Origin: Engelhardtia mirabilis
GTDB taxonomy: Bacteria > Planctomycetota > UBA1135 > GCA-002686595
Assembly (NCBI RefSeq): GCF_007748095.1
Contig: NZ_CP036287.1
Location: forward strand, 3,619,448-3,651,447
Reading direction: 5' to 3'
DNA length: 32,000 nt
Shown here: piece by piece, positions 5,694 through 27,508 of the stretch
Position numbering within the stretch: the first letter of the stretch is position 1
How the letters are laid out: the number at the start of each line of letters is the position of its first letter
The notes under the pieces: model-generated
The model's database searches: none
What the model saw: only the letters and a program-made list of their open reading frames with translations
What the model was told of the DNA's origin: nothing
Translations under genes and position numbers: made by a program

Positions 5694-5752
5694 GCCGGAG
5701 GGTGGTAGCGGTGGACGGACTTGAACCGCCGACCCGCGAATCGTGATTCCGC
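5694..5752 (-). repeat. tRNA 3'-half remnant, att-like direct repeat copy A
   Basis: The minus strand reads GCGGA-ATCACGA-TTCGC-GGGTC-GGCGG-TTCAAGT-CCGTC-CACCGCT-A-CCA, i.e. anticodon arm, variable loop, T arm, acceptor 3' strand and CCA. No matching 5' acceptor strand (AGCGGTG) or D arm lies upstream. 5694-5738 is identical to 24215-24259. Confidence 0.7.
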
Positions 5753-7586: not shown

Positions 7587-10500
7587 ATGAAGGACCCGGA
7601 GATCTGGCCTCCCTGGCTCGTCCGTATTCGCGCTCAGCAGGGAAACGAGGAGGGAGTCGGCGCTGGTCTGCTGATCGCCCCCGACCTCGTCCTCACCGCG
7701 TGGCACGTGGTGAACGTCGACGGCAAGTACCGTGGCACGGCGACGTCGGGCGGGACCCCGATGGCCGCGGCCAGGATCGACCTGGAGATCGGAGGCAAGC
7801 ACCGCCGGTCCATCCCGACCCCCCACCAGCGGCATGTGTCCTTCGCCGACAAGCCCGTCGACGACGAAGGCCAAGGCCGCGACTACGACCTCGCGCTGGT
7901 CCGGCTCGAAGAGGACCCGGTCCCGATCGATTCGGGCGACCTCCTTCCGATCGCCCGCGGTGTGCGACGACTCGAGTACCTGGCCCTCGGTGACCTCGGT
8001 CCGGACGAGCCCTTCCAGGTCGTAGGGTTTCCGGGTGGGAGCCTGCGCACGAAGCGTTTCGACGACGGTGCCCCCGACCCGGAGCGTGCCGGCGACGAGT
8101 TCTACGAGGTCCACCTGGGCCACCGAGTTCCCGAGGGCTACAGCGGCGGACCCATTCTGGCCGAGGTCGACGGCCAAGCTCTGTGCCTGGGGCTCGCGAG
8201 CCTCGGTGGAGCCACGGTCGGCTCTTCGGTCCAGACCTTCTCGGGAGCGATCATCGAGTTCCTCGATCAACAGAAGGTCCTTCGACGCGAAGGCGATCGG
8301 CTTCAGGTACCGACCGAGGACCTCGGCCGATTGCTCCTGCGCAGGCCACTCGAGTGCATCGCGGAACGCAACGACCGGCTTCCGCCGATCTTGTCCCGGT
8401 CCGCCCGCAAGGAGTGGAAGCTGCACGACCTGTTCCAGGAGCGGATCGTCGTGGACCGGGCAGCGACGGGCGGTGGCGACAGTGACGGTAACGCGAAGGC
8501 CGGTGGCCTGAGGGAGTTGGTGGATTGGACGCCCACCGTCGACTCGCCCCCGCGATGGGTCCTGCGAGGCGCGGGGGGAACCGGCAAGACGACTCTCCTG
8601 CGCCACCTCGCCTTCGAGCTGGCCCGCGAGGCGAATCAGGCCGGGGATGGCGCAGCGCTGCCACCGGTGGCCATCTTCCTGCGCCTGCCCCTCATCGTCC
8701 GTCGAGGGCCCGACTGGAGAGCGGCGCTGTTCGACGAGCTGAGAGATCGCGTGGATCGTGCTGCGATCCTCACGAGGGCGCTCAGCTCGCGCGTTTCCGA
8801 ACCCCGGATCCTGCTGCTGCTCGACGGGCTCGACGAGGTCGACGCCGGAGAAGTGACCGAGAACACCATCTCGCTCCTGCTTCAGGGCCTGCCCGATCAC
8901 CTCCCCGGAGTCGGCCTGGTCGTGGGCACTCGCCCGACGGGCTTCGACGACCGAGAGCCGGCGCTCACGCGACACTGGAACACCGCTTCGGTCGAGCCCC
9001 TGGATCGAGATCACCAGATCCGACTGGTCACCGAGGTGTCGAAGGCGATCGGCCGGCCTTGCTCAGAGAAGGCGACCGCCGCATGGGTCCATCAGATCAG
9101 TCGGGACGAGCGATTCGCCGACATCCGCGGCAACCCACTCTGGTTGACGCTGGCCGCCCTCGCCGTGGACCCGGAGACGGGGGCTCCACCGCCGTCCATG
9201 TCGGGCCTGCTCGCCAAGGCAGTCGACCACCTTGTAATGGGCATGCACCGCGGCGACCTCGAGCCCAGAGCTCGCCGCAGACGTACTCCCGTGGCAGGTC
9301 CGATCCCCAGCGCGGCCCGTCCGGTCTTGGGAACGATCGCACTCGCCATGACCCTCCAGCGTCAGGACGAACTCCGCTTCGACGACCTGGTCGAGGTCTG
9401 CAAGAACCTCCGCAAGAGAGCGGACCACGACGTCCGAGGCAGCGATGAACTCTGGGCTCGGTTGACGGAAGCCTGGGAATTGCTCGAGGACGATTCGGAG
9501 GAGAGCATCCTCGATCAGCTTTCGCTCGGCACCGATATCCTGAGCCCGCTCGAGGAGGACGGCGAACAAGTGGAAGACGGGGGATCCGACGCCGACGAGC
9601 TCTGGTCCTTCAGACATCGGACCGTGAAGGAGTTCCTCTCTGCCGATCAGCTCCGCCGCATGCTCGAAGGCGACGACGCTCCTCACGCCCAACAGCTGAT
9701 CGAGGCAGGCCTCGACGCCGACCTCGAGGGCTCGGTCCGGCACTGGGCCGGACCTGCGGCCCTTCTCGTCGAGATGCTCGACGACGCGACCGGGGCGGAA
9801 CGCGTGCTCCGGTGCCTCGCACCGAGGGATCCCGAGGCCGCTCGCCGCGCCCTGCTAGGAAGACCGAACGCCACGGTGGGCTCGATCCACATCGTCTTGG
9901 CGTCGCTCGAAAAGGAAGGGGACCGCGCGGCGGTGATCGAGCAGATCGATCGGCTGATCGAGGATCGTCAGGAGGCCTTCGATCTCCTGCGAAGCCTCGG
10001 CCTCGATCCCCGGATCCGAGCGGACCTGTACTTCGTCGACGAAGCACTGCTGGCCTTCGGAGTGCGGCACGAGGATCTCGCGGACGAGGCCGATGCCGCG
10101 AGACTGCGGATCTACGAGGAGCTGCCGGTCGAGCCGACGTGGCGTGCACCGTTCGAGCGGACGTTCGGGGATCCGGGGGTGCCCCTGTGGCGACCGGTAA
10201 CGCGGCACCTGACGTTCGGTTACGGCGATCGCGAGCTGGAGCAGGTGACGGAGCAGCCGTTCCAGATCTCGGCGGTTCCGGTGACGGAGGAGATGTACCG
10301 GATATTCGACCCGCACGATGATCAGCGGAAGTCGGAGCCAGGTCTCCTTCCGGCGCGCTCGGTCAGTTGGTGGGGTGCGATGGCCTTCTGTCGCTGGGCC
10401 GGAGCGAAGCTCGGTTTCGGTCTCGCCGGGAGCCTGCCGACAGAGCGTCAGTGGGAGTGTGCCGCGCGGGCCGGGACCGAGAGCGACTACTGGTTCGGCC

Positions 10501-10811
10501 CCGAGGCGCTCGACGAGCATGGGTGGTATGGGCAGAACTCTGAGTCTCGTGCCCACGATGTCGCGACTCGGCCGCCGAACGGCGACCGGCCCCAGCAGCC
10601 CAACCCGAACGGCCTTTTCGATGTCCACGGAAACGTCTGGGAGTGGTGTGTGGACCTCTTCGGCCGCGACGGCCCGAGGCGCGTGTTGCGCGGCGGTTGC
10701 TTCTGGTACGCGGCCGCGAGCTGTCGCTCGGGGTTCCGCTACTGGGACCACCCGGCGGACCGCGACCGGCTCCGGGGCTTCCGCGTCGTCCTCCCGGCCG
10801 ACCTTCGATGA
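7587..10811 (+). CDS. trypsin-like serine protease / NACHT (STAND) NTPase / FGE-sulfatase (C-type lectin fold) protein; DGR target 1
   Basis: ATG at 7587, 1074 aa. S1 triad motifs LTAWHV, DLALVRL and GYSGGP. Walker A GAGGTGKTT (about nt 8570-8600) and Walker B LLLLDGLDEV (about 8810-8840). NACHT-end FRHRTVKEFL. C-terminal SUMF1/FGE motifs RQWECAARAG, HGWY, NPNGLFDVHGNVWEWC and RVLRGG...GFRVVLP. VR1 lies at the 3' end. Confidence 0.92.
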   Translation: MKDPEIWPPWLVRIRAQQGNEEGVGAGLLIAPDLVLTAWHVVNVDGKYRGTATSGGTPMAAARIDLEIGGKHRRSIPTPHQRHVSFADKPVDDEGQGRDYDLALVRLEEDPVPIDSGDLLPIARGVRRLEYLALGDLGPDEPFQVVGFPGGSLRTKRFDDGAPDPERAGDEFYEVHLGHRVPEGYSGGPILAEVDGQALCLGLASLGGATVGSSVQTFSGAIIEFLDQQKVLRREGDRLQVPTEDLGRLLLRRPLECIAERNDRLPPILSRSARKEWKLHDLFQERIVVDRAATGGGDSDGNAKAGGLRELVDWTPTVDSPPRWVLRGAGGTGKTTLLRHLAFELAREANQAGDGAALPPVAIFLRLPLIVRRGPDWRAALFDELRDRVDRAAILTRALSSRVSEPRILLLLDGLDEVDAGEVTENTISLLLQGLPDHLPGVGLVVGTRPTGFDDREPALTRHWNTASVEPLDRDHQIRLVTEVSKAIGRPCSEKATAAWVHQISRDERFADIRGNPLWLTLAALAVDPETGAPPPSMSGLLAKAVDHLVMGMHRGDLEPRARRRRTPVAGPIPSAARPVLGTIALAMTLQRQDELRFDDLVEVCKNLRKRADHDVRGSDELWARLTEAWELLEDDSEESILDQLSLGTDILSPLEEDGEQVEDGGSDADELWSFRHRTVKEFLSADQLRRMLEGDDAPHAQQLIEAGLDADLEGSVRHWAGPAALLVEMLDDATGAERVLRCLAPRDPEAARRALLGRPNATVGSIHIVLASLEKEGDRAAVIEQIDRLIEDRQEAFDLLRSLGLDPRIRADLYFVDEALLAFGVRHEDLADEADAARLRIYEELPVEPTWRAPFERTFGDPGVPLWRPVTRHLTFGYGDRELEQVTEQPFQISAVPVTEEMYRIFDPHDDQRKSEPGLLPARSVSWWGAMAFCRWAGAKLGFGLAGSLPTERQWECAARAGTESDYWFGPEALDEHGWYGQNSESRAHDVATRPPNGDRPQQPNPNGLFDVHGNVWEWCVDLFGRDGPRRVLRGGCFWYAAASCRSGFRYWDHPADRDRLRGFRVVLPADLR
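10669..10803 (+). repeat. DGR variable repeat VR1
   Basis: 135 nt colinear with the TR. By hand alignment, 15 mismatches fall at TR adenines and 1 elsewhere. Encodes RVLRGGCFWYAAASCRSGFRYWDHPADRDRLRGFRVVLPAD. Confidence 0.9.
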
Positions 10812-10828
10812 TCGATCTTTGAGATGTG
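10805..10828 (+). repeat. post-VR conserved 24-nt element, copy 1
   Basis: TCGATGATCGATCTTTGAGATGTG directly after VR1. It contains the stop codon and is absent after the TR. Confidence 0.8.
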
Positions 10829-11136
10829 TTCGAATGTGGACCCGAACGGACGTTCCATTCCTCGCGCGGCCCTCGATGACCGAACAGAATTCCGGTCGTC
10901 CCGTTGTTCCGGTCGTCTGCGACCGATCGGTTCTCGAACGCCCCAGATCCCCGGGAACCGAGCCTCCGGTCCCCGCCCAGAAATGGCCCGTTGTGACCGG
11001 CCGACCCGACATCCGGAAGCAGGACGACCCTCAACGGCCATCAGGTTCCGGATCGGGCCTACCCCCTCCACACCCGAGGAGCGCGGCTCGGCCACCAAGG
11101 TCAGCCCGACGCCCTCGACCGCTCTGACGGCTTTCC

Positions 11137-12162
11137 TCAGACGCACAGGACGCTTCCCAACGCTCCTGCCCAACCCTCAGCAGGAATGGCCGGCCCGGTC
11201 CCACGAACGTACCTGGCCGCCCGTGCGCCCATCCGCCTCGCGTGCCTCGGGAGGGGTTCGATCCCGCTGCGGGTTACCAAGTGTCCGAGGGCATCGAGGC
11301 GACCGCTGCAGGATCGCGGGCGAGCCCCGGGGCGCTTCAATCGCAGACCGAGTCGCTCGTCGAGGTACCGCCCCACGTCGTCCCGCGCGGCCCGCAAGGC
11401 CGACCTAGAGTCACCGAACAGGAACAGATCGTCGACGTAGCGGACATAGCCGGGCACGCGAAGCTCGCGCGCGACATGGCTGTCGAGGCCCAGCGGCACA
11501 ACGTGGGCCGCCAAGACCTGGCTCGTGTACGCACCGATGGGCAGTCCCTCGCCGGGCGGCGGCCAATCGGGATCCAGTCGAGCGAAGGCTCGTACGTGAC
11601 GATCGTCGTAGAGGCCCCGCCCGGACTCCAGGATCCGATCGACGACCTGCAGGAACCGCTCGTCGCGGATCCGGCGACGGAGCAGGGACCGGACCAGCTC
11701 GATCCGGATGCTCGGGAAGTAGCTTCGAACGTCCAGATGCACGAACCACGCATGACGGCGGACCAGCTCCAGGATCCGGAGCAACGCGCGATGGGTTCCC
11801 CGTCCGGTGCGGCAGGCGTAGTCCGCGTCCGATAGGGATCGCTCGAGCACAGCCTCGACCAGGCGCGCGACCGCCGTGTGCACCACTCGATCCAGGACCG
11901 ATGCTCGTGCGATGACCCGGGGCTTGGGATCGTGCAGGAACAAGAGATCGAAGGCCCCGTGCCGCCAACGGGCGTCCACGAGCGCGGCACGCAACTCGCG
12001 AAGCTCGGATTCCCGGCGGAACAGGAAGGTCGCGACATCCGCCCGCCGCCGCTTCCCCCGGACGGTGACCCGCGCAGCCTCGTCGAGCCGGTCCTCGTCG
12101 ACCAGCTGCTCGAAGAGGCCGCCCGTGGTCCTGGTCAAGGTGCCCCTCCGGACGCTCGCCAC
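11137..12162 (-). CDS. DGR-type reverse transcriptase
   Basis: 341 aa with a GTG start. RT motifs HLDVRSYFPSI, LPIGAYTSQVLAAH (the DGR-specific IGxxxSQ) and YVRYVDDLFLF (YxDD). Lies 124 nt downstream of the TR. Confidence 0.92.
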   Translation of the reverse strand: MASVRRGTLTRTTGGLFEQLVDEDRLDEAARVTVRGKRRRADVATFLFRRESELRELRAALVDARWRHGAFDLLFLHDPKPRVIARASVLDRVVHTAVARLVEAVLERSLSDADYACRTGRGTHRALLRILELVRRHAWFVHLDVRSYFPSIRIELVRSLLRRRIRDERFLQVVDRILESGRGLYDDRHVRAFARLDPDWPPPGEGLPIGAYTSQVLAAHVVPLGLDSHVARELRVPGYVRYVDDLFLFGDSRSALRAARDDVGRYLDERLGLRLKRPGARPRSCSGRLDALGHLVTRSGIEPLPRHARRMGARAARYVRGTGPAIPAEGWAGALGSVLCV

Positions 12163-12286
12163 CGGCGGTGACTACGGGAACGGAGGGGCGAGGTCGGACG
12201 AGCGGGCCGGAAGGTCCGGCTGCGACGTCCGCGGGGAGGGGCCTGATCGCGGATCCGCTCGCCTCGCGAGCTCCGTCCGCGGGCTG

Positions 12287-12421
12287 GGTCGGCCGGGAGG
12301 ACGACGCGGAAGCCCTGGTTCCGGTTGCGGTTCGCCGGGTGGTTCCTGTTCCGGTACCCCGAGCGACAGTTCGCGGCCGTGTTCCAGTAGCTACCGCCGC
12401 GCATCACGCGCCTCGGGCCGT
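12287..12421 (-). repeat. DGR template repeat (TR)
   Basis: A 135-nt non-genic copy of the target 3' ends. It reads RVMRGGSYWNTAANCRSGYRNRNHPANRNRNQGFRVVLPAD, with seven AAC codons and about 25 adenines. It sits between avd and the RT and lacks the 24-nt post-VR element. Confidence 0.9.
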
Positions 12422-12795
12422 GGGGCCCCTGCCCCTGCACCGGACTTGGAGAATCGCCGGGAGCTGCGGCCCCATCCACCGAGCATGCGGCCGATCGTGT
12501 CGAGCTCCGCCGAAGCGAACCGCATCCGTCGCTTCGTCAGGTAGCCCAGCGACTCGGCGAGCCGCAGCAGCACCCGGAGGCGGACCACACCTCGATCGGC
12601 GGCGCGACGATGGTCGTCCCTCTCGGCCGGGAAGGTCAATGCTATCGAGACATCCGCGACGAGGTCCTGGACGGCGTCGGCGACCCGTCCGGCCGAGCAC
12701 ATGGCTTCGGGTTGCGGCCATCGCGCGACCTCGGCCAAGAGCCAGGTCGCGAGGTCATGGCTGCGTACGTAGAGAGGCGCGCGTCGCCAAGTCAC
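12391..12795 (-). CDS. avd: accessory variability determinant (Avd, four-helix-bundle family)
   Basis: 134 aa with a GTG start overlapping the upstream stop (GTGA). PLYVRSHDLATWLL at the N-terminus and LDTIGRMLGGW near the C-terminus are Avd hallmarks. The 3' end overlaps the TR. Confidence 0.8.
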   Translation of the reverse strand: MTWRRAPLYVRSHDLATWLLAEVARWPQPEAMCSAGRVADAVQDLVADVSIALTFPAERDDHRRAADRGVVRLRVLLRLAESLGYLTKRRMRFASAELDTIGRMLGGWGRSSRRFSKSGAGAGAPRPEARDARR

Positions 12796-13382
12796 CGCTC
12801 GCGCCTCCCGAGCTTCTCGCTCCAGCGGATGAGGCCCCCCAAGGTCGGAAGGACCTCCGACTCAATCCGCGCGGCCCAGGCGAGCTGCTCCCCCTCCGGC
12901 TCGGCGTCCTGGATCAACAGGAGGCCCACGCAACGGCTCATCAAGCACCGGGCGCGGCGGAGGGCCTCGCCCTTACGATCCGCGTCGTAGGCGTGGACGC
13001 CCTCGCAGACGGCCAGCAGTCCGGACAGGAGCGCGCGCTCCGCAGCGGACGACGATGATCCTGTCGATGCCGCGGTTGCTCGCATAGCCGCGAGAACCGC
13101 GCGCCCACGACGAAAGCACTCGACGTCCTCCACGGATCGCCGACGGTCACCGTGCCGCACGGCCGCCCTTGAGGGAAGGGCCTCTTCGACCGCCTCGCGC
13201 ACATCGTCGGCTCGTCGTTGGAGCGACTGACGCTGATCCTCGGTCAAGGGCAGGCTCTCGCGCCGGATGCGCCAGGACTTGCCATGCTTGGCCCCCCGCA
13301 ACTCACCCCGTGCGAGCCGTGCACGGACGGCGCGCGGGCTCACCCCGAGAACGACGGCAGCTTCGCGAACGCTCAGTTCCAT
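12792..13382 (-). CDS. excisionase/MerR-type HTH protein with helical C-terminal domain (DGR-associated)
   Basis: MELSVREAAVVLGVSPRAVRARLARGELRGAKHGKSWRI is a typical N-terminal HTH. The C-terminus ...LPTLGGLIRWSEKL faintly echoes the Avd C-terminus. Alternative ATG starts at 13505 and 13517. Confidence 0.65.
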   Translation of the reverse strand: MELSVREAAVVLGVSPRAVRARLARGELRGAKHGKSWRIRRESLPLTEDQRQSLQRRADDVREAVEEALPSRAAVRHGDRRRSVEDVECFRRGRAVLAAMRATAASTGSSSSAAERALLSGLLAVCEGVHAYDADRKGEALRRARCLMSRCVGLLLIQDAEPEGEQLAWAARIESEVLPTLGGLIRWSEKLGRRER

Positions 13383-13732
13383 CCCGGTGGATCGAACCGG
13401 CTGGATGGATCGAGGTTCCGATCCAGAAGACGATCTCGTGGACGTCGTGGAACTCGTGACCTCCTCGAGGATGCCGATGACCGGATCGAGGGACGAAGTG
13501 GCCATCGACGGCCGCATGAGTAGCCATCAATGGCCGCAACTGGCCGTCGCGACGTGTGAGCGGTCAGTGCGGGAGGTCGAACCGAGTCCAATCGGAAACG
13601 ACACCGGCACGCGACGGCCGAACGGCGCAGGGGTCGCCTCGGTCTCGGGATCCCACCGGAACTGGGTCCGGCCACGTGGTGCCGAGAATCGGCACTGCGC
13701 GTCCCCTCGGCGACGCTCGGGCCGCTCGAAGA

Positions 13733-13756
13733 CACATCTCAAAGATCGATCATCGA
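13733..13756 (-). repeat. post-VR conserved 24-nt element, copy 2
   Basis: The reverse complement reads TCGATGATCGATCTTTGAGATGTG. It contains the stop codon of target 2. Confidence 0.8.
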
Positions 13757-16700
13757 AGCTCGGCCGGGAGGACGAGGCGGAAGCCCAGGTTCCGGTTGCG
13801 GCCCGCCGGGTGGCTCCTGCTCCGGTACCCCGAGCGACAGCCCGCGGCCGTGTCCCAGTAGCTACCGCCGCGCAACACGCGCCACGGGCCGTCGCGGTCG
13901 AAGAGGTCCAGACACCACTCCCAAACGTTCCCGTGGACATCGAGAAGGCCGTTCGGGTTGGGCTGCTGGGGCCGGTCGCCGTTCGGCGGTCGAGTCGCGA
14001 CATCGTGGGCACGAGACTCAGAGTTCTGCTCATACCACCCATGCTCGTCGAGCGCCTCGGGGCTGAACCAGTAGTCACCCTCGGTCCCGGCCCGCGCGGC
14101 ACACTCCCACTGGCGCTCGGTCGGCAGGCTCCCGGCGAGACCGAAACCGAGCTTCGCTCCGGCCCAGCGACAGTAGGCCATCGCACACCACCAACTGACC
14201 GAGCGCGCCGGAAGGAGACCTGGCTCCGACTTCCGCTGATCATCGTGCGGGTCGAAGACCCGGTACATCTCCTCCGTCACCGGAACTGCCGAGATCTGGA
14301 ACGGCTGCTCCGTCACCTGCTCCAGCTCGCGATCGCCGTAACCGAACGTCAGGTGCCGCGTTACCGGTCGCCACAGGGGCACCCCCGGATCCCCGAACGT
14401 CCGCTCGAACGGCGCACGCCACGTCGGCTCGACCGGCAGCTCCTCGTAGATCCGCAGTCTCGCGGCATCGGCCTCGTCCGCGAGATCCTCGTGCCGCACT
14501 CCGAAGGCCAACAGTGCTTCGTCGACGAAGTACAGGTCCGCTCGGATCCGGGGGGCGAGGCCGAGGCTTCGCAGGAGATCCAAGGTCTCCATACGATCCT
14601 CGATCAAGTGCTCTACCTGAGAGATCACGGCCCCCCGATCCTCCTCCTCCTCGAGCGATGAAAGGACGATCATGACAGCATTCGTCGAAACCGCTCGACT
14701 CGCCATCAACGCGCGTCTCGAGATCGCCGGCGCATCCTCGAGGCTCTCGAGCAGGACTTCGACTTCCCCTTCGACGAGTCGTTCCGCCAGCATGCCGAGC
14801 GGCTCGGACCAGAAACGCGCGACGTCGTCCTCTCCATTGTCGCTCTCAGCGTCACCATCCATGCTCCCCTGTTCTGCGCCAACCAGCTCGAGCCAGTCGC
14901 ACCAAGAACGCAATCCGGCCGGACCCTGCGAACTCAACCAGCCTTCATTCGTGCTCAACCTGAGCGCACTCAGGATGCTTCGCGCATTGTCAGCCAGACG
15001 AACGTCGTCAGCATCGATCTGCGAGAGCGCTCGGTCGAACCGCTGCAGAAGTGCACGACGCACAGCCCCAGCGGCCGACCGCGCGCGAGCAAGAACATCG
15101 TCCTGCCCCCCTGCCGCCGTCCACCTCTCCCAGAGCCATTCCGACGTCAGAAACTCGAGCGTCGACCGGTGCCAGAAGCGCCAGTCCTCGTCAATGTCAT
15201 TTCCGCGTCGTCGGATCCTCCGCTCTGGCGGTGTCAGGATCGAATTGCGTTCGAGCCACCTGAGGACGTCATTCGGAGCGCAACGTTCCTTCAGATCCAG
15301 GAGGTCCCGGCGAAGGTCGGTCCATGGCGTCGGAGCGCTTCCATCAGCGCCGCGCTCCGAGTCCTTCAGATCCTCGAGCCATGTCTCCATGACGCTGCGA
15401 GGGACCTGTACCAGGCCCTCCGAAGACATCCGGTGGGCCAACCATCGGAGCACGGGCCGGACGGACCGTGGAAGCGCCTCGGGCTGCACCGAGTCGTCGT
15501 CCGCCACTTCGTGGATCTGCCGCTGATCGCGGCGGTGCTTGCCCGCCTCCAGTCGACGGAGGATCGCGTCGAGCAGGTCGACCCGCGAGCCTGGCTCACG
15601 GTCCTCCTCGAAGATCACGATGGCTGCCATGGTCAACCACAGCGGGTTCCCGCGTTCCTCGTCGTAGCGGGCATCGACTTGGATCCGGTCGACCCAGTCC
15701 TCGAGTGCCGCCGCGTCCATCGTCGGCTTCGCGGGGCCGCCGAACTTCCGGTGCTGCCCCACCAGCTTGACGAGCAATTCCTTCTGCCGATCGGCACCCA
15801 GAGGTTCGACGCTCGCCAAGCTCCACGCTTTGAACTGGGCGCTCCGTTCAAGGTAGCGTGACGGTCTGGTTCCGAGCGCCACGGGCGTTCTGGGCAGCTC
15901 GCGCGGGATCGAAGCGAGCAGGGCCCCCACGTTCGGCCGCTCGGCCTTGCTCACCTCGTCGTAGCCGTCCAGCAACAGCACCAGCTCACCGCGAGGATCT
16001 TGCGCGCCGAGCAGCTCCCCCGTGTAGTGGTCGACCTTTTTCGTGACGTATTGGACGAGGTCTTCGAACGGACGAGTGCCGACGTTCTTCAGGTCCGGTA
16101 GACGGACGAGCAAAGCGACCCTGTCGCCTTCGTCGATGGGACGATCTGAGCCGGTCGCGAGGCGAGCGTCCGCGAGCCGCTTGGCCAGCTGGCGAAGGAT
16201 CGTCGTCTTGCCCGTTCCGGCTTCACCGCGAAGGATGATCCGGGGTTGATCCGATTCCGCGGAGGGTGAGTTCGAGCCGGGCCCGGACGGGACCTCACTT
16301 GCCGGTGACTCCTCGTCGAACGCATCCTCGAGCCCGAGGTGTCGCGCGAGGGACGTCTGTCCATGCACCGCGGCGCGAACCGCCTCCCCGTCCCGCGGAA
16401 CCTCCAAGGTGACGCGATCGACGAAGACGTCGTCGAGGCTGAGATCGGGTGCCCATGGGAGGACGTCGCACTCGGCCGAGAGCCGACCGAGAAACGGTTT
16501 CAACAGCAGTGAGCGAAGATCGGGTGAGCTCGGTAGCGCGAGCGATTCGCCCCCGCCGTCCCGCTCCTCGATCACCCGCCGAGCGTTGTCGAGGAACGGT
16601 CCGACGGTGCCTGCCAGCAGGTAGCCCGAGAACGGGTGATTGGACCCGCCGACGATGGTGATCCCGACCCAGTGGAGATCCGATCCGACACGCAGCAGCA

Positions 16701-17310
16701 GGGGCCCTCCACTGAAGCCGCCGTGGACCCTCCCGTGTTCGGCCCCAAGATCACGAGCCTCCCGATGGAGGTGGTCAGGGTCCCAGCCCTCGAGCCGTGC
16801 GCTCTGGTCGTCTGGGCTCTCGACGCCGTCGGGGAAGCCCCAGATCGCGAACGACGAACCGCGGGCGACCAGCGCTCGGGCCTCGAGCTCACCAAGACCA
16901 CGGGTCAGCGACGCAACGGCATCCCCCTCGGCCAGGCCAGGAACCCTCAGCAGTGCCAGGTCCACCGAGCGCCCGACCCCAGAGAGGTCGCCCGACGCGA
17001 ACAGGACGTCGGCCGACGACGGGTCGTACGGACCGATCGAGTGAATGGACGGTTCGGAGTCCAGTGCCGTGGGGTGATCGGCAAGTGTCACCACGACGCC
17101 CTTGGCAGGATTCGGCGACTCGGACCGGCCACCACTGAACGTCCCGGTCCGGCTGAGAACGTGCCAGGCGGTCAGAACCCATCCCGGCGCGACGATCACG
17201 CCGGAACCGAAGTTGTCATCAGTCGTCGTCTTGCCGTTCTTGGTCTTCTCGACCCGGCACTGGATGCGAACCAGGGATGGCACCGCCGAAGGCCAATCGA
17301 GATCAGGCAA
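13750..17310 (-). CDS. trypsin-like serine protease / NACHT (STAND) NTPase / FGE-sulfatase protein; DGR target 2 (cis target upstream of avd-TR-RT)
   Basis: 1186 aa. The apparent start is TTG at 17308-17310; the GTG at 17281-17283 is the alternative. Triad motifs LTAWHV, DLALLRV and GFSGGP. Walker A GEAGTGKTT (about nt 16195-16230) and Walker B LVLLLDGYDEV. WRFWHRSTLEFL. The C-terminal FGE domain is nearly identical to that of target 1. Confidence 0.9.
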   Translation of the reverse strand: MPDLDWPSAVPSLVRIQCRVEKTKNGKTTTDDNFGSGVIVAPGWVLTAWHVLSRTGTFSGGRSESPNPAKGVVVTLADHPTALDSEPSIHSIGPYDPSSADVLFASGDLSGVGRSVDLALLRVPGLAEGDAVASLTRGLGELEARALVARGSSFAIWGFPDGVESPDDQSARLEGWDPDHLHREARDLGAEHGRVHGGFSGGPLLLRVGSDLHWVGITIVGGSNHPFSGYLLAGTVGPFLDNARRVIEERDGGGESLALPSSPDLRSLLLKPFLGRLSAECDVLPWAPDLSLDDVFVDRVTLEVPRDGEAVRAAVHGQTSLARHLGLEDAFDEESPASEVPSGPGSNSPSAESDQPRIILRGEAGTGKTTILRQLAKRLADARLATGSDRPIDEGDRVALLVRLPDLKNVGTRPFEDLVQYVTKKVDHYTGELLGAQDPRGELVLLLDGYDEVSKAERPNVGALLASIPRELPRTPVALGTRPSRYLERSAQFKAWSLASVEPLGADRQKELLVKLVGQHRKFGGPAKPTMDAAALEDWVDRIQVDARYDEERGNPLWLTMAAIVIFEEDREPGSRVDLLDAILRRLEAGKHRRDQRQIHEVADDDSVQPEALPRSVRPVLRWLAHRMSSEGLVQVPRSVMETWLEDLKDSERGADGSAPTPWTDLRRDLLDLKERCAPNDVLRWLERNSILTPPERRIRRRGNDIDEDWRFWHRSTLEFLTSEWLWERWTAAGGQDDVLARARSAAGAVRRALLQRFDRALSQIDADDVRLADNARSILSALRLSTNEGWLSSQGPAGLRSWCDWLELVGAEQGSMDGDAESDNGEDDVARFWSEPLGMLAERLVEGEVEVLLESLEDAPAISRRALMASRAVSTNAVMIVLSSLEEEEDRGAVISQVEHLIEDRMETLDLLRSLGLAPRIRADLYFVDEALLAFGVRHEDLADEADAARLRIYEELPVEPTWRAPFERTFGDPGVPLWRPVTRHLTFGYGDRELEQVTEQPFQISAVPVTEEMYRVFDPHDDQRKSEPGLLPARSVSWWCAMAYCRWAGAKLGFGLAGSLPTERQWECAARAGTEGDYWFSPEALDEHGWYEQNSESRAHDVATRPPNGDRPQQPNPNGLLDVHGNVWEWCLDLFDRDGPWRVLRGGSYWDTAAGCRSGYRSRSHPAGRNRNLGFRLVLPAELR
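13758..13892 (-). repeat. DGR variable repeat VR2
   Basis: 135 nt colinear with the TR. 10 mismatches at TR adenines and 2 non-A mismatches, both in the last 25 nt. Encodes RVLRGGSYWDTAAGCRSGYRSRSHPAGRNRNLGFRLVLPAE. Confidence 0.9.
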
Positions 17311-18810: not shown

Positions 18811-21800
18811 ATGCTCCCGAGCACAGACAGATCTCGACCCTACGTCCTGCGTGTCACCTCCGACGACGGGAACCCGGCGGCGGGGATCCTGGTCTCGGAG
18901 AACTATGCGGTGACCTGCTGGCACGTCGCCAACGGCAGTGGAAAGTTCAGCGAGAAGGTCCCCAACTCCCGTGAGGCGGCATGGGGGCTCTGCGCCGGCG
19001 GTCGGCCGGCCGAGGTCGTGGCCTGGGGCGACCTCCCTGGGATCGGCTATGAGGTAGACGTGGCTCTGCTGAAGCTCGAGGGTGCGCCAGCGAGTCTCGA
19101 GAGTGCCGACCTTGCCCTGGCGTACGACTCCCGACTCTTCGACCAGCTCCTCGACAGTGTTTCCTACCTCGAGGTGGAGGGGTTCCCTCGCCACTCGCCG
19201 ACCTCGCACGTCGAATCCTGCCGGCCACACAAGGGATCGGGATCGTCGAGTACGAGCCGGGGTGGCCAGGTCACCGAGTTCGGCCTCTTCGCCCGCGTCC
19301 ACGAGGGAGTCAGCGGCGGACCCGTGGTCGCCGGACGTGGAGGCGAGGAGGTCTGCGTCGGGATGGCCTGTCTCGGCAGCTCGAGGTCGCTGCAGATGGC
19401 GGCCGTGTCGTCGGGTGAACTGCTGGCGCTCCTCGAGCACCACTTCGACGGAGAGCTTCCCCATGCGGTCCGAACCAGGCCCCTCGACGACTGGCTCATC
19501 GACCATGGCGTGATCGAAACGCGCGGGTCCTATCTCCGTGCACTGAGGGCTCGGGTCGAAGAGGACCACGACTTGCTCAGGATGCTCGGGGTCGATGACC
19601 TCGCCGACGAGTTCTTCGATCGGGTCTACGTCCGACTCGAGGTCGGAGTCAGTCCCTCGTTCGCGCAGCGTCTAGCCGATCTAGGCGATGAAGAAGACGC
19701 CAGCATTCCCCCGTCTGGTGTCCGCCTAGACCAACTGCTGTCGATCCCGCCTGCCCGGTTCGGCATCGCCGGGCCGCGATTCGTCCTGCGCGGCGAACCA
19801 GGCTCGGGCAAGACCACGATCCTGCGCCAGCTCGCCTGGTCCCTCGCCGGCGACGACGACGCCGCCTGGACGCCGGTAAGGATCGGGCTCCCCGACTTCG
19901 CGCGCTGGAGAGCGGGGCAGAATCGAAAGGGCGACGCCTGGGACAAGCTGCTCGACTACCTCGAGGAGCAGCAGGACATTGCCGATGCTCGCCGCGAGGC
20001 GCTCGTGGCCGAGCGCGAGCATGGGCGTCTGCTGCTGCTCCTCGACGGGCTCGACGAGGTCCGCGGCGAGTTGAGAACCACCACTCGCTCCTGGCTCGCG
20101 AACCTCTCCGAACAGATGGGCTCGTCCGCCATCGTCGTGGCGACGCGGACGATTCCGTATCGCAAGCCCGCGGGCGGCTACGTGGAGGCGGACGTCGAGC
20201 CCATGGGAATCGCTCAACAGAAGAAGTTCCTGAGCGCCTGGATCGGCGACGAGGGGGCGGCCGAGGATCACATCAAGCGCTGGGCCGACCTCCCCCACAG
20301 CCGATTGTCGCTTCTGGCCGGGAACCCGCTCTGGTTGACGTACTTCGGCTTGCTCTTGCGCCGTGGCGAGACGCCCGATGAGTCTCGCAGCGCACTCTAC
20401 GAGCAGGTCCTCGAGCTGCTCCTCTCCGGTGAGTTCCAGGATCCTCCGAAGAAGAACCCGAATCCGGCCGTGATGCGCGCTGGGCTCGTGTTCCTGGCGG
20501 TCCAGATGAGCAAGAAGGGCGAGACAGCAGTTCGCAAGTCGGACCTCGACGCCCTATTCCAAGAGCAAGGCGTCGAGACGGACGTCGCCGTCCGCGCCGT
20601 GCTCAACGAATGGAGCCGACGCCCTGACGATTTCCTCCAGGACGTGCAGGCGATCACGGGGATCATCGGTCGATACGGCGAGAAGGAGGGGAGGAACTGG
20701 CGTTTCTGGCACGGCCAGCTTCGTGAGGTCCTGGTCATGATTTGGCTGCGGAGCCTCACCCGCGACGAGCAGCTCGCCGAGGCCGCCGCGCTGGCGGAGG
20801 ATCACCTCGGCTTCTTCGCCGAACCGTTCGCGCTCCTGGTCGGCACGGATGAGCTGGCCGACAAGGACGAGATGATCGAGCGGCTCGTCGAGCACAATCC
20901 GGTCCTGGGGCGCAGAGTGCTGGCCAGTGCTACAGGAGTGTCGCCGTCGACGGTCGAGAAGGTGCTGGGGCTCGATTCGTCGGACCCTGAGCGTCGCGGC
21001 GAGATTCTCCTGGACCTGCCGAACATCCTGGGTCGCGGGGAGGGGGCACGGGCCGCAACGATTCAACTCGTCGAACGGCTGTGGATGGCGAGCCGGTCCA
21101 GCGAGGAGGAGATGTGGGCGGACTGCTACCACCTGGACGAGCTACTCGTCGCGCTCGAGGAGGAACCGGGTGAGCTAGTGTCCACTCGTAGAGCCCTGTA
21201 CTTCCGGCGCTTTGGACAACCGGACCGTCCGACCTTGAAGGAGTTGTTTCCGCCGATCCACGGGCTCACCCCCTTTCCTCGGATCGATCCCGGTTCATTC
21301 GCAATGGGTGACGGGGACGCTCCCAGTCGCCAGCAGGTGAAGATCCCAACCCCATTCCGGCTCGGGGCAACTCCCGTCACCGAGAGCCAGTTCAGCTTGA
21401 TGTCTGGCAGGGAGATCGAGACGAGTAGCCGTAAGCCGAAGGGCGAGATCAACTTCTTTGGAGCCATGCTGTACAGCAGGTTCCTCGGTTGGGCGATGGG
21501 ATCGGATCAGCCGGGCGACCTGCCGACCGAGGCTCAGTGGGAGTACGCAGCGCGAGCAGGCAACGAGGGTGACTACTGGTTCAGCCCTGGGGCCCTGGAC
21601 GACCACGGCTGGTACGAAGGCAACTCGGGAGGTCGGGTCCACGACGTCGCCACTCGCCCCCCGGATGGCGAGGAGCCGCAGCAGCCGAATCCGAACGGCC
21701 TGTTCGACGTGCACGGGAATGTTTGGGAGTGGTGCCAGGACCTTCTCGGCGGCGCCGGCCCGTGGCGCGTGATGCGCGGCGGTAGCTTCTGGGACTCGGC

Positions 21801-21912
21801 CGCGAACTGTCGCTCGGGGTACCGGATCAGGAACCACCCGGCGAGCCGCCTCTGGGACCTGGGCTTCCGCGTCGTCCTCCCGGCCGACCGGAGCTTGGCC
21901 ATCGATGATTGA
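18811..21912 (+). CDS. trypsin-like serine protease / NACHT (STAND) NTPase / FGE-sulfatase protein; DGR target 3
   Basis: ATG at 18811, 1033 aa. Triad motifs VTCWHV, DVALLKL and GVSGGP. Walker A GEPGSGKTT (about nt 19795-19825) and Walker B LLLLLDGLDEV. C-terminal FGE motifs AQWEYAARAG, HGWY and NPNGLFDVHGNVWEWC. VR3 lies at the 3' end. Confidence 0.9.
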   Translation: MLPSTDRSRPYVLRVTSDDGNPAAGILVSENYAVTCWHVANGSGKFSEKVPNSREAAWGLCAGGRPAEVVAWGDLPGIGYEVDVALLKLEGAPASLESADLALAYDSRLFDQLLDSVSYLEVEGFPRHSPTSHVESCRPHKGSGSSSTSRGGQVTEFGLFARVHEGVSGGPVVAGRGGEEVCVGMACLGSSRSLQMAAVSSGELLALLEHHFDGELPHAVRTRPLDDWLIDHGVIETRGSYLRALRARVEEDHDLLRMLGVDDLADEFFDRVYVRLEVGVSPSFAQRLADLGDEEDASIPPSGVRLDQLLSIPPARFGIAGPRFVLRGEPGSGKTTILRQLAWSLAGDDDAAWTPVRIGLPDFARWRAGQNRKGDAWDKLLDYLEEQQDIADARREALVAEREHGRLLLLLDGLDEVRGELRTTTRSWLANLSEQMGSSAIVVATRTIPYRKPAGGYVEADVEPMGIAQQKKFLSAWIGDEGAAEDHIKRWADLPHSRLSLLAGNPLWLTYFGLLLRRGETPDESRSALYEQVLELLLSGEFQDPPKKNPNPAVMRAGLVFLAVQMSKKGETAVRKSDLDALFQEQGVETDVAVRAVLNEWSRRPDDFLQDVQAITGIIGRYGEKEGRNWRFWHGQLREVLVMIWLRSLTRDEQLAEAAALAEDHLGFFAEPFALLVGTDELADKDEMIERLVEHNPVLGRRVLASATGVSPSTVEKVLGLDSSDPERRGEILLDLPNILGRGEGARAATIQLVERLWMASRSSEEEMWADCYHLDELLVALEEEPGELVSTRRALYFRRFGQPDRPTLKELFPPIHGLTPFPRIDPGSFAMGDGDAPSRQQVKIPTPFRLGATPVTESQFSLMSGREIETSSRKPKGEINFFGAMLYSRFLGWAMGSDQPGDLPTEAQWEYAARAGNEGDYWFSPGALDDHGWYEGNSGGRVHDVATRPPDGEEPQQPNPNGLFDVHGNVWEWCQDLLGGAGPWRVMRGGSFWDSAANCRSGYRIRNHPASRLWDLGFRVVLPADRSLAIDD
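21755..21889 (+). repeat. DGR variable repeat VR3
   Basis: 135 nt colinear with the TR. 11 mismatches at TR adenines (counting the boundary base) and 1 non-A mismatch. Encodes RVMRGGSFWDSAANCRSGYRIRNHPASRLWDLGFRVVLPAD. Confidence 0.9.
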
Positions 21913-21925
21913 TCTTTGAGATGTG
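21902..21925 (+). repeat. post-VR conserved 24-nt element, copy 3
   Basis: TCGATGATTGATCTTTGAGATGTG, 1 mismatch to copies 1 and 2. It is displaced 12 nt from the VR3 end by an insertion and contains the stop codon. Confidence 0.8.
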
Positions 21926-24214: not shown

Positions 24215-24273
24215 GCCGGAGGGTGGTAGCGGTGGACGGACTTGAACCGCCGACCCGCGGATTATGATTCCGC
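24215..24273 (-). repeat. tRNA 3'-half remnant, att-like direct repeat copy B
   Basis: Same T arm, acceptor and CCA as copy A. The anticodon arm is GCGGA-ATCATAA-TCCGC. No complementary 5' acceptor strand or D arm lies upstream. Confidence 0.7.
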
Positions 24274-25183: not shown

Positions 25184-25450
25184 GTGACAGACTCGAACCA
25201 GTTGACCAGAGATCAGCGCAGCGCCCTGGAGTGGGCCAAGCGCGCCCACATCCTGCGAGCGGAGCGCACGACCGAGGACGTGGGCTACCGCAGCCCCGAC
25301 GGCGGGCCCCGGCACGGCAGCGAAGTGGTGCGGGAGTTGATCGCCAGGGAGTTCTTGGCCCGCCGGGATGACGGATCGGTGCGGATCACCCTGCTTGGGA
25401 TCCACGCGGTCAACAAGGGCGGCGGCGACGACGGCGGGAGGGCGGCGTGA
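25184..25450 (+). CDS. small phage-like hypothetical protein
   Basis: GTG start preceded by GGAGCAGGAG. The stop overlaps the next GTG start. Confidence 0.55.
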   Translation: MTDSNQLTRDQRSALEWAKRAHILRAERTTEDVGYRSPDGGPRHGSEVVRELIAREFLARRDDGSVRITLLGIHAVNKGGGDDGGRAA

Positions 25451-26076
25451 GCGAGTACCACAAGATCCAGACGGTATGGCTCCGCGACCCCGAGACGAAT
25501 CACAAGACGCTCCTGGAGGGGCGCTGGGCGAAGCCCGAGTTCGAGTACCTGCGAAAGAACTCCTGGACCTTCACCGAGAAGATCGACGGGACCAACGTCC
25601 GGCTGATTCGCGCGAACGGCTGCGACGTCCGGGGCAAGACCTTTCGCGCGCAGCTCCCTCGTGGAGTCTTCGAGGCCGGCGCGAGGATCGTGAAGAGCTC
25701 AGCCTTCGCTCGCCTTCCGGAGGAGATGGTTCTCTACGGCGAGGGCTACGGGGCGAAGATCCAGAAAGGTGGTGGCAACTACCGCCAGGACCAGGGAATC
25801 GTCCTCTTCGATGCCTGGTGTGGGATGTGGCTGGAACGGTCGAGTCTCGAAGAGATCGCGGAGTCTCTGGGGCTGGAGGTCGCCCCCGTGATCGGCTCGG
25901 GGCGGCTGAGCATCGCGATCGACTGGTGCCGCAGCGGCGATCTCAAGTCCCGCTGGGGTGACTTCCCCGCAGAGGGCATCGTTGCCCGCCCCGAGGTCGA
26001 GATGCTCAACCGCCGCGGCGAGAGGGTCATCACCAAGATCAAGTGCCGGGACTTCCGCGAAGGGAGGGCGGCGTGA
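25447..26076 (+). CDS. ATP-dependent RNA ligase family protein (stand-alone nucleotidyltransferase domain)
   Basis: Motif I TEKIDGTN (KxDG adenylylation lysine), then YGEGYG, EGIVARP and KIKCRDF, in the order of covalent nucleotidyltransferase motifs. 209 aa. Confidence 0.8.
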   Translation: MSEYHKIQTVWLRDPETNHKTLLEGRWAKPEFEYLRKNSWTFTEKIDGTNVRLIRANGCDVRGKTFRAQLPRGVFEAGARIVKSSAFARLPEEMVLYGEGYGAKIQKGGGNYRQDQGIVLFDAWCGMWLERSSLEEIAESLGLEVAPVIGSGRLSIAIDWCRSGDLKSRWGDFPAEGIVARPEVEMLNRRGERVITKIKCRDFREGRAA

Positions 26077-27080: not shown

Positions 27081-27508
27081 AGCGCGCCGAGCACGTCGCG
27101 AAGACCCTCGCGTTCCTGGGCGAGTGCTACCCCGGGCTCCGCAACGGCGGGCCGGCGCAGCTCGCGGCCTGGTCCGCGATCCTCGGGAGCTACTCCCTGG
27201 CGCAGCTCCTCGAAGCGGCCGAGGCCGTGGCGCGGACCCACACCTACGGGATCCCGGCGCCCGCGCACCTGGTCGAAGCGATCGAGGGCCGGCTCGTCTG
27301 GAGCCAGGTCCCCTACCGCGACATCTGGGGTTCGCTCCGGGTCGACGGCAACGGCCGGCGGGTGACCGAGGCGAAGCTGGTCCGCCGCTTCCCGGACGGG
27401 CGAGAGGAACCCGCCGACGATGCGCTGGACGACGAGCGCCCGATGCTGCCGCCTGGCGCGAAGACCGCGGGGATGCTCGCGGCGGAACTGGCTGGGGGTG
27501 ACTCGTGA
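27077..27508 (+). CDS. phage-like hypothetical protein
   Basis: The ATG overlaps the upstream stop (ATGA). 143 aa with native-like codon usage. Confidence 0.6.
   Translation: MKRAEHVAKTLAFLGECYPGLRNGGPAQLAAWSAILGSYSLAQLLEAAEAVARTHTYGIPAPAHLVEAIEGRLVWSQVPYRDIWGSLRVDGNGRRVTEAKLVRRFPDGREEPADDALDDERPMLPPGAKTAGMLAAELAGGDS

Follow-up and report, generated by a model that had tools for sequence, protein, structure and literature searches.

How the cDNA of a DGR finds and enters its target has been described as unresolved (PMC5703328, PMC12875486); the only target determinants defined so far, the IMH and a GC hairpin, are both from one phage. GC-rich inverted repeats were detected in only 34% (about one-third) of DGRs (Wu et al., PMC5758913). 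In BPP-1, IMH and IMH* form a pair of 21-bp repeats with somewhat different sequences. A post-VR hairpin or cruciform has also been described in this phage (24 bp immediately after the VR) and in other phage DGRs (4–34 bp after it); it has a GC-rich stem of 7–10 bp, the sequence of which is free to vary, and a GRNA tetraloop (Guo et al. 2011, PMC3240598). According to Wu et al. (2018, PMC5758913), recognition has to reach into the downstream sequence when IMH and IMH* do not differ, and the work of Guo (2011), Wu (2018) and Naorem (2017) would lead one to anticipate such a downstream cue.

The element reported here, a 24-mer following each of the three VRs of an Engelhardtia DGR, resembles the BPP-1 IMH in its place where the VR ends on its 3′ side, immediately following a GC-rich stretch that the TR has as well; like the IMH, it delimits adenine mutagenesis on the 3′ side and differs between recipient and donor. 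Unlike the IMH, it is internally repetitive (7-nt units), relatively AT-rich, and lacks any counterpart after the TR. With the post-VR element of phage DGRs it shares its place (0–13 nt after the VR, compared to 4–34 bp), a similar size, its absence after the TR, its conservation among related DGRs and, presumably, the same role in target recognition. Its position is thus that of the phage element, but it contains no GC-rich inverted repeat of 7–10 bp with a GRNA loop. Rather than a significant fold, it is the sequence and its 7-nt register that are conserved.

The DGR of the window and the 24-mer after its VRs

The window, i.e. the whole stretch of 32,000 nt that was analysed, contains an intact DGR with an RT, an Avd, a TR and A-specific mismatches. 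Its assignment follows from a DGR-type RT, from adenine-biased TR/VR pairs, and from an Avd located beside the TR together with a C-terminal FGE-sulfatase VR. The reverse transcriptase (333 aa; 11137–12138, minus strand) is 100% identical to an Engelhardtia mirabilis protein, present in two strains, and 48–66% identical to the RTs of many loci bearing TR and VR; it starts at a TTG preceded by GGAGG, has an RVT_1 domain and contains the motifs IGAYTSQ and YVDD. The spacer between TR and RT (12139–12286, minus strand), which presumably corresponds to the Sp region in the DGR RNA, shows the clade-wide motifs GATCAGGCC..CCCCGCGG..GTTCCCGTAG..CGGAGGGGC when the spacers of 26 loci are compared. No Rfam family matched anywhere in the window, this spacer included. 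The Avd accessory protein is encoded at 12391–12795 (minus strand). Its matches to bAvd (PF22296, 36.4 bits; cut-off 40) and DivGenRetAVD (NF033474, 51.1 bits; cut-off 80) both fall below the curated cut-offs; homologues occupy the same position in 25 related loci. An excisionase-family HTH protein of 196 aa (12792–13382, minus strand) matches HTH_17 (41 bits) and TIGR01764 (36 bits), both above the cut-off, and gives a weak PDB match to Pukovnik Xis. The stop of its gene overlaps the start of avd; among related loci, 40 were found to contain the gene, and it immediately precedes avd wherever both were detected.

The TR (12287–12428, minus strand) has three corresponding VRs, each at the 3′-end of a target gene. 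VR1 (10662–10803, plus strand), which belongs to target gene 1 (7587–10811), shares 87% identity with the TR, and TR adenines account for 15 of the 19 mismatches. VR2 (13760–13892, minus strand; target gene 2, 13750–17310) and VR3 (21756–21889, plus strand; target gene 3, 18811–21912) are each 92% identical to the TR, and in both 10 of the 11 mismatches fall at TR adenines. An FGE-sulfatase domain ends all three target proteins, that of target gene 1 having the architecture Trypsin_2-NACHT-FGE-sulfatase. As noted in a preliminary description of this DNA, the TR-VR homology stops at ...CCTCCCGGCCGAC(C), beyond which the TR runs into unrelated GC-rich sequence; alignment of the TR with the three VRs revealed no similarity past GACC, so there is no alignable IMH* counterpart to the 24-mer. 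The identity reported there for the GC-rich end of the repeat in TR, VR1 and VR3 was also found, GTCGTCCTCCCGGCCGAC being common to all three; the 24-mer begins 1–13 nt later.

A pattern search allowing up to three mismatches in the 32,000-nt window located TCGATGATYGATCTTTGAGATGTG at 10805–10828 (plus strand), 13733–13756 (minus strand) and 21902–21925 (plus strand) and nowhere else; chance matches were 0 in 100 shuffles. These are the three sites originally proposed, and each lies just 3′ of its VR, with a gap of 1–13 nt. The copies after VR1 and VR2 are exact matches and that after VR3 matches at 23 of 24 positions; position 9 is C in the first two and T in the third. Copy 1 can be parsed as TCGATGA / TCGATCT / TTGAGAT / GTG, that is, three 7-nt T-n-G-A units followed by a GTG tail, and the autocorrelation at a lag of 7 nt is 0.44 for copy 1 and 0.52 for copy 3. 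The element is ∼50% G+C in a background of 69% G+C. The 40-nt flanks beyond it show identities of 0.55–0.62 among the three loci, compared to 0.56 for unrelated 40-mers, which agrees with the earlier view that they are unrelated. Copy 3 had been described as displaced by a 12-nt insertion. The displacement is real, although its size differs: 12–13 nt stand in place of 1–2 nt, leaving the element a net 11 nt farther from the VR end than the other copies and therefore in a different reading frame; aligned to VR2, the change appears as two small indels. The exact 24-mer had no match in species-representative genomes, and neither exact nor near-exact versions gave any match (0) in metagenomes and viral contigs. 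The Engelhardtia version of the element is rare, and only the family consensus described below gave metagenome matches.

Homologues of the element in related DGR loci

Comparison with the post-VR sequences of related DGRs, as the preliminary description had advised, uncovered a post-VR element of tandem 7-nt repeats in ∼70 loci from several phyla, whose RTs are 33–66% identical to that of the window. In these loci a homologous element comes after each VR that could be recognised, and never after the TR. Three to four 7-nt units in tandem, built on a T-n-G-A skeleton, make up the family element, which closes with GAGAGTGT or GAGATGTG; membership was defined as at least three T-n-G(A) 7-nt direct repeats that start 0–14 nt past the TR homology and end in one of these two sequences. 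All three window copies fit both the family alignment and this definition. The same element occurs in ∼30 independent loci of different phyla (RT identity down to ∼50%), and a related heptad array in ∼40 more (RT identity down to 33%). Among the closest relatives, L081 (RT 66% identical) and L082 have a homologue after the VR, and L035 has three post-VR copies with 3 mismatches; 25 further loci contain homologues. In the alignment, G5, T10 and G12 never vary, and conservation is at least 90% for T3, T17 and G19. The lag-7 autocorrelation reached 0.47 and 0.44 in the two clades, compared to ∼0.23 at other lags and to only 0.31 and 0.25, respectively, after the TRs.

A family profile built from the other loci, with the window left out, recovered in the window just the three 24-mers (E = 0.13, 0.12 and 0.085 for copies 1, 2 and 3, respectively); it was silent in the 3′ flank of the TR, where no heptad element is present. 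When 1.1 Mb were searched, 51 of the 53 profile matches lay just after target-gene ends, including all those with E < 6, and the metagenome matches to the family consensus were post-VR in 7 of 7 cases. The distance from the end of the homology to the core of the element is tight (–1 to +13 nt). Between VR pairs, identity at +0 to +40 was 0.88–1.00, compared to 0.59–0.85 in the upstream coding DNA; this identity between paralogues could have been raised by gene conversion starting in the near-identical VRs. No such element is present in three TR-homologous paralogues in which many of the mismatches are at positions other than A; one of the three has kept the GC-rich end. These TR-like paralogues (n = 3) look decayed. 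The type of repeat tracks the DGR lineage and not the host phylum, Thermoanaerobaculia and Acidobacteriota each having several types. Since the parts of the cassette are co-inherited, this tracking does not identify the reader of the element.

The element is conserved as a DNA sequence, neither as codons nor as a fold. The earlier statement that each copy contains the stop codon holds for the three window copies: the target stop is a TGA at nt 5–7 of the 24-mer after VR1 and VR2, and a TGA at nt 9–11 after VR3, where it arises from the C-to-T change at position 9. The stop is not intrinsic to the element, however. At 54 related target ends, for which reading frames were taken from protein alignments, its position varies between –12 and +17, with all three phases represented, and it lies wholly upstream of the core in 21 of them. 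The element is non-coding: the stop is located either ahead of it or within it, and all three phases occur. A role as the start of a downstream ORF was discarded, as the ORFs that begin at the ATG/GTG in GAGATGTG use different frames behind VR1 and VR2, and behind VR3 no ORF begins there.

As for folding, the 24-mer does contain the short palindromes ATCT-TTG-AGAT and GATCGATC, to which attention had been drawn. The best stem is one of 4 bp, the minimum free energy amounts to only –1.6 to –1.9 kcal/mol, and DNA folding gave z = 0.05 and –0.37 for the two strands relative to shuffles; with flanks, the three copies gave values of –0.62 to +0.81. No GC-rich stem of at least 6 bp was present within 34 nt of any window VR. 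Across relatives, just 3 bp of the mini-stem are kept; what is conserved is the register of the direct repeats.

Alternative explanations

The element might serve gene expression at the 3′-end of the targets and have nothing to do with homing, as a terminator, an mRNA stability or processing site, or a set of fail-safe stops in several frames. This is unlikely, even though the 24-mer stands at the gene end and, in the window, includes the stop codon. A terminator scan of 10600–14000 returned nothing at the VR1 or VR2 copy, and the sequence of the VR3 copy has no GC hairpin with a T-run either; unlike rut sites, the 24-mer has more G than C (7 compared to 3). The T-n-G-A units do provide a TGA or TAG every 7 nt, and hence stops in successive frames, and 8 of 40 close-clade VRs have a stop in each of the three frames within 40 nt, compared to 0.2% of random 60-mers; closure of all frames is nonetheless a minority feature, and as the reason for the conservation it was rejected. 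In addition, the position of the element is set by the end of the TR homology and not by the stop, which in the 21 of 54 cases mentioned lies wholly upstream of the core, and the decayed paralogues of the same gene family lack the element.

The 24-mer could instead be an operator of the cassette's excisionase-family HTH protein, regulating the DGR operon or the targets without marking a homing site. Xis-family proteins bind tandem direct repeats, the HTH_17/TIGR01764 gene keeps its place next to avd in the window and in related loci, and the VR2 copy lies ∼350 nt upstream of it. The VR1 and VR3 copies, however, are not upstream of any cassette gene, and 7-nt arrays also follow the VRs of the CTCTGA-type clade, the cassettes of which have neither an HTH gene nor room for one. 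Better operator candidates are the CGGCAA/TTGCCG palindromes at +40 to +130, which are enriched in the HTH-carrying close clade and not in the mostly HTH-less distant clade. The window has a palindrome, GTGCCGA-TTC-TCGGCAC, at 13679–13695. We regard an operator function as improbable.

It is very improbable that the element has no function and is simply the tail of a duplicated unit behind three paralogous targets, kept alike by gene conversion from the near-identical VRs. Targets 1 and 2 do share a 939-nt repeat (93% identity) that ends 1 nt past the 24-mer, and the 23/24 identity with the VR3 copy, set against a background of 80%, gives a P value of only ∼0.03 (our own binomial estimate). 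This explanation is largely refuted by the conservation across loci: the same element is present in ∼30 loci and the related array in ∼40 more, the window-free profile also recovers it, and in many loci it is more conserved than coding DNA. The VR3 copy, moreover, is intact despite the 11-nt indel that separates it from its VR.

Finally, a DNA hairpin or cruciform of the BPP-1 type acting through its structure, which the phage-like position and the two short palindromes of the 24-mer might suggest and which the preliminary description had considered, is barely credible, since the sequence folds no better than shuffles and the mini-stem is hardly kept in relatives.

A putative signal for retrohoming targets

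We thus lean towards a cis-acting target-site element, of which the 24-mer would be the Engelhardtia version, belonging to one large DGR lineage whose targets have FGE-sulfatase/C-type-lectin VRs. Its presence after VRs and never after the TR in ∼70 loci suggests that it probably designates the site into which the mutagenised DNA copy is to be inserted. Of the discriminating cue first proposed, what stands is a VR-specific, TR-absent, non-coding and constrained element with homologues, a pattern that a cue telling VR from TR should look like; the hairpin and the intrinsic stop find no support. Such an element fits the statement that recognition extends downstream (Wu et al. 2018), and we infer that it may take the part of the BPP-1 IMH and hairpin, although it is built differently.

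During retrohoming, the GC-rich end common to TR and VR would be unable to tell donor from recipient, and the heptad array would give this information. The array would most likely be a sequence-specific docking site that positions the RNA-linked cDNA with its 5′-end at the GC-rich boundary, and would most likely be read by a protein, with one repeat per subunit. Candidate readers are the RT-Avd particle and the excisionase-family HTH protein of the cassette. The lower duplex stability of the element may also aid strand opening.

Short head-to-tail repeats, with one unit per protein subunit, are found in the Xis-family sites on attR and in the heptad arrays of the omega repressor. The tandem short repeats and the Xis-family HTH gene of the cassette recall these systems, by analogy only. 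Xis sites are spaced ∼10 bp apart, unlike the 7 nt seen here, and the array is also present in a DGR clade without the HTH gene.

RNA-guided recognition, as in the model of Naorem (2017), is unsupported. Cognate pairs of spacer and post-VR sequence did not form duplexes of better energy than non-cognate ones (rank 12 of 26 and 17 of 38), a weak test because both partners are conserved; between the window spacer and the element there is just a 6-nt CGAUCA/TGATCG match.

A more far-reaching proposal, which we put forward tentatively and hold with some doubt, is that in the largest cellular DGR lineage the heptad array serves the homing machinery as a docking code of its own, read by a multimer with one repeat per subunit. 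The multimer might be a pentameric Avd-RT; in this clade it might instead be the HTH protein, in the role of a directionality factor. The array would then replace IMH/IMH* and the cruciform, and would be necessary and, together with TR homology, sufficient for recipient status.

No description of such a post-VR motif was found in the limited set of papers searched, which does not prove its absence. The element may fill, for one lineage, the gap left by DGRs without GC inverted repeats. The heptad array is conserved in sequence, free of structure, and present after essentially every VR of a lineage whose diversified targets, in many phyla, are NACHT/STAND 'sensor' proteins. It offers a concrete, mutable cis element, and a marker for remote targets and for telling live from dead VRs in genomes. 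The candidate protein-DNA pair formed by the array and either the Xis-like HTH protein or Avd-RT could explain the directionality of these DGRs and help to retarget them.

The DGR and the element following its variable repeats

The diversity-generating retroelement (DGR) in the window is intact, comprising a reverse transcriptase (RT), the accessory protein Avd, one template repeat (TR) along with three variable repeats (VRs). The RT (11137-12138, - strand) bears the motifs IGAYTSQ and YVDD, and matches a protein from the planctomycete Engelhardtia mirabilis at 100% identity. Upstream of its gene lie the 142-nt TR (12287-12428) and the avd gene (12391-12795), whose product matches both Avd family models with scores under the curated cut-offs. 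VR1 (10662-10803, + strand) differs from the TR at 19 positions, 15 of them TR adenines; VR2 (13760-13892, - strand) and VR3 (21756-21889, + strand) each show 11 differences, 10 of which are at TR adenines. All three VRs form the ends of proteins of ~1,000-1,200 aa with trypsin-like, NACHT and FGE-sulfatase domains. Alignment of the TR with the VRs agreed with the preliminary description in placing the end of homology at ...CCTCCCGGCCGAC(C), beyond which the TR runs into unrelated GC-rich sequence. The TR-RT spacer (12139-12286, - strand) is conserved clade-wide (loci L001-L035 of the related DGRs used for comparison) as ..CCCCGAGCAGGCC..TCCCCGGCGG..hairpin..CCGTTCCGGTAG..hairpin..CCGGGCGGGC, and many loci repeat the TR's final 8-10 nt in direct orientation within it, just ahead of GAGCAGG. 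No Rfam family matched this spacer, which presumably serves the DGR RNA as its priming (Sp) region.

When the window was searched for the pattern TCGATGATYGATCTTTGAGATGTG allowing up to 3 mismatches, exactly three occurrences were found, none being expected by chance. As previously described, these 24-mers lie after the VRs: at 10805-10828 (+) after VR1, 13733-13756 (-) after VR2 and 21902-21925 (+) after VR3. The 24-mer can be divided into the units TCGATGA / TCGATCT / TTGAGAT / GTG. The 12-nt insertion reported for VR3 does displace the 24-mer, but is really a stretch of 12-13 nt in place of the 1-2 nt between VR1 and its 24-mer; the net change of +11 nt puts the VR3 copy in a different reading frame. 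The stop codon is a TGA at nt 5-7 of the 24-mer in VR1 and VR2, and a TGA at nt 9-11 in VR3, the latter created by a single C-to-T difference within the element. Over 939 nt, targets 1 and 2 are 93% identical to each other, and this stretch ends one base beyond the 24-mer. Target 3 is ~80% identical to the other two (0.69-0.77 in windows upstream of the VR), so that the 23/24 match of its 24-mer is only mildly surprising. From the window alone, the case for the 24-mer being more than a duplication tail is thus modest; the decisive evidence comes from related loci.

Elsewhere in the window, a 59-nt direct repeat (5694-5752 and 24215-24273, 95% identical) brackets 18.5 kb in which lie a fatty-acid desaturase gene and the complete DGR with its three targets. 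It resembles the 3' half of a - strand tRNA, with an anticodon-arm-like hairpin (apparent anticodons CAC and CAT in the two copies), a T-arm and an ACCA end, and the copies may represent att sites at the borders of an integrated island. Neither ARAGORN nor Rfam called a tRNA or tmRNA at them, and no integrase domain was found among the ORFs scanned. An imperfect tandem repeat with a unit of ~10-11 nt (CAACCAGGTT / CAACCTGGTT, 5-6 copies) is present at 26483-26544, within or beside ORF 26245-27501, with an RNA-ligase-domain gene (25447-26076) on one side and a C-5 cytosine methylase gene (27420-29360) on the other.

Tandem heptads after the VRs of related DGRs

The comparison with post-VR sequences of related DGRs, suggested in the preliminary description, was run on 80 loci with related RTs (33-61% identity) from Planctomycetota, Acidobacteriota, Myxococcota, Chloroflexota, Proteobacteria, Nitrospirota, Cyanobacteria and others, to which the two closest relatives were added from the protein collection. 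TR/VR pairs were found through adenine-specific mismatches. In every locus with a recognisable VR, short tandem units followed the VR and not the TR, which was flanked instead by a conserved GC-rich spacer. The close clade (RT ~48-66% identical) yielded the aligned core CnTnGATCnTnGATCnTTGAGAnTGTG, in which three positions (G5, T10, G12) never vary and conservation of T3, T17 and G19 is at least 90%. This amounts to a T-n-G skeleton with an exact 7-nt period, which the window 24-mer fits. Among the closest relatives, locus L081 has GATCGATGTTGGATCTTTGAGGTGTG after its VR, and in L035 each of the three VRs is followed by TCGATCTTCGATCCTTGAGATGTG; units in the distant clade are CTCTGA or CTCTGG, or of the CTTGG type. 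Autocorrelation at lag 7 over the first 42 post-VR nt was 0.47 for the close and 0.44 for the distant clade (0.44, 0.44 and 0.52 for the three window copies), compared with ~0.23 at other lags, 0.31 and 0.25 at lag 7 after the TRs of the two clades, and 0.25-0.28 in shuffles. The post-VR region of the close clade has ~50% G+C against a background of 69%, with k-mers enriched 50-200-fold. The repeat type tracks the DGR lineage rather than the host phylum, which fits an element-encoded reader but also simple co-inheritance.

Matches to the array fell almost solely at target-gene ends. An nhmmer profile built from 25 loci, the window excluded, recovered the three 24-mers in the window and nothing else; over 1.1 Mb of loci, 51 of its 53 matches lay just past a VR or an FGE-sulfatase gene end flanking a DGR RT, the remaining two being the weakest (E 6.8 and 7.5). 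The family consensus TWGATCNTWGATCNTWGAGAGTGT had seven matches in the metagenome collection, all of them 13-20 nt past a VR-like FGE-sulfatase gene end, with an RT adjacent on three contigs. Outside the source genome, nothing in the genome, metagenome or viral collections matched the window's own version, whether exactly or nearly so.

The constraint on the array is neither coding nor structural. When frames were taken from protein alignments, the in-frame stops at 54 target ends were found to start between -12 and +17 relative to the core (one outlier at +65), the positions mostly differing by about one repeat unit (6-8 nt). The stop codon, reported as part of the element, is indeed inside all three window copies, but it is wholly upstream of the core in 21 of the 54 target ends; in L035 it precedes the 24-mer homologue by 8 nt. 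Even with its short palindromes, the sequence folds no better than shuffles (z ~0 on both strands). The core keeps to a narrow range of distances (-1 to +13 nt) from the end of TR homology. Between paralogous VRs of a locus, the first 40 post-VR nt are 0.88-1.00 identical in most loci, while the coding DNA upstream is only 0.59-0.85 identical; the post-VR similarity falls to background by +80 to +120. Three TR-homologous FGE-sulfatase gene ends (L024 4660, L018 12328 and L016 15570) are 73-81% identical to the TR, with only 33-63% of their many mismatches at adenines. None of the three carries the array, not even L024 4660, which keeps the GC-rich end; this would be expected, for what three cases can tell, if the array rather than the GC-rich end licenses a recipient.

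In L014 (9305-10000), L028 (9230-10000) and L030 (7955-10000), heptad-bearing FGE-sulfatase genes flank the RT and an HTH gene is present; no TR homologous to their VR-like ends was detected, and these cassettes may be DGRs that have lost their TR. At L020 807 (-), in a close-clade locus, a third FGE-sulfatase gene end shows no homology to the local TR and is followed by a CTTGATTCTTGG-type array, as in another DGR lineage (L033, L044); possibly a second DGR of that genome uses it as a target.

An HTH protein as candidate reader

Immediately upstream of avd lies an ORF of 196 aa (12792-13382, - strand), the stop codon of which overlaps avd's GTG start, containing an HTH_17/TIGR01764 excisionase-family DNA-binding domain (scores above curated cut-offs) and a conserved helical C-terminal part. 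Searches with tblastn found this gene in 40 related loci, directly upstream of avd wherever avd was also found. Xis-family proteins bind tandem direct repeats, and the HTH protein gave a weak PDB match to Pukovnik Xis; it is a concrete candidate for the reader of the array. A role as universal reader is opposed by the CTCTGA-type clade, which has arrays but lacks the HTH gene. In the DGR surveys consulted, no mention of an HTH or helix-turn-helix accessory gene was found.

Past the heptad array, at +40 to +130 after the VRs, close-clade loci (for example L022 9025-9075; L025; L028 9270-9640; L030 8000-8470) contain arrays of CGGCAA/TTGCCG half-sites, ~10-fold enriched and often forming palindromes such as CGGCAAGATCTGCCG. 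The clearest palindrome in the window is GTGCCGA-TTC-TCGGCAC (13679-13695, - strand), 65 nt past VR2. The close clade, where the HTH gene is present, shows this enrichment, and the mostly HTH-less distant clade does not. These palindromes may be an alternative binding site, serving as operators of the HTH protein.

Bearing on target recognition

In phage BPP-1, the target determinants established by experiment are a (GC)14 stretch; the 21-bp IMH at the VR end, of which the TR holds a slightly different version, IMH*; and, no more than 24 bp downstream of the VR, a GC-rich hairpin carrying a GRNA loop (PMC3240598, PMC5703328). Wu et al. noted that recognition must reach downstream when IMH and IMH* do not differ, and just 34% of DGRs had GC inverted repeats in their analysis (PMC5758913). 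The heptad array occupies the corresponding downstream position but, unlike the BPP-1 elements, has no TR counterpart and no fold, and keeps a strict 7-nt direct-repeat register. On these grounds, the array can be read with fair probability as a cis-acting target signal for retrohoming, probably recognised by a protein with one repeat per subunit; lower duplex stability beside the GC-rich boundary may help. An RNA-guided mode, with primer RNA pairing to post-VR DNA, received no backing from spacer/post-VR duplex energies, which were no better for cognate than for non-cognate pairs, although this is a weak test.

As a side observation, the last bases of homology read GAAC (or CAAC) in the TR where all VRs of the same locus have GAGC (or CAGC) in L001, L008, L013, L016, L017, L018, L022, L023 and L024, and VR2 of the window (13760-13763) has GAGC where the TR reads GACC. 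The GAAC/GAGC-type difference is a fixed A-to-G change, not random adenine mutagenesis, and so constitutes a short IMH/IMH*-like pair.

Other functions for the array are disfavoured. Against a purely regulatory operator stands the placement of the copies, two of which have no cassette gene downstream. An element for 3'-end expression is opposed by the position and stop-codon data and by the G>C composition; a terminator in particular was rejected, no terminator features being present. Neutral duplication or gene conversion is excluded as the sole cause by conservation across phyla. A BPP-1-type hairpin is excluded by the folding results. The proposal that the 24-mer distinguishes VR from TR gains strong comparative support as regards a target signal, but not in its hairpin and stop-codon aspects.

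That a VR-specific determinant lies downstream of the shared GC-rich end is an established concept, with which the preliminary description was in line. A heptad array was found described nowhere in the literature searched, including Wu 2018, Guo 2011, Naorem 2017, Doré 2024, Unlu 2026 and Kaur 2020. What appears to be new is the form and breadth of the determinant: a sequence-conserved array of heptad direct repeats after practically all VRs in a large lineage of cellular DGRs.
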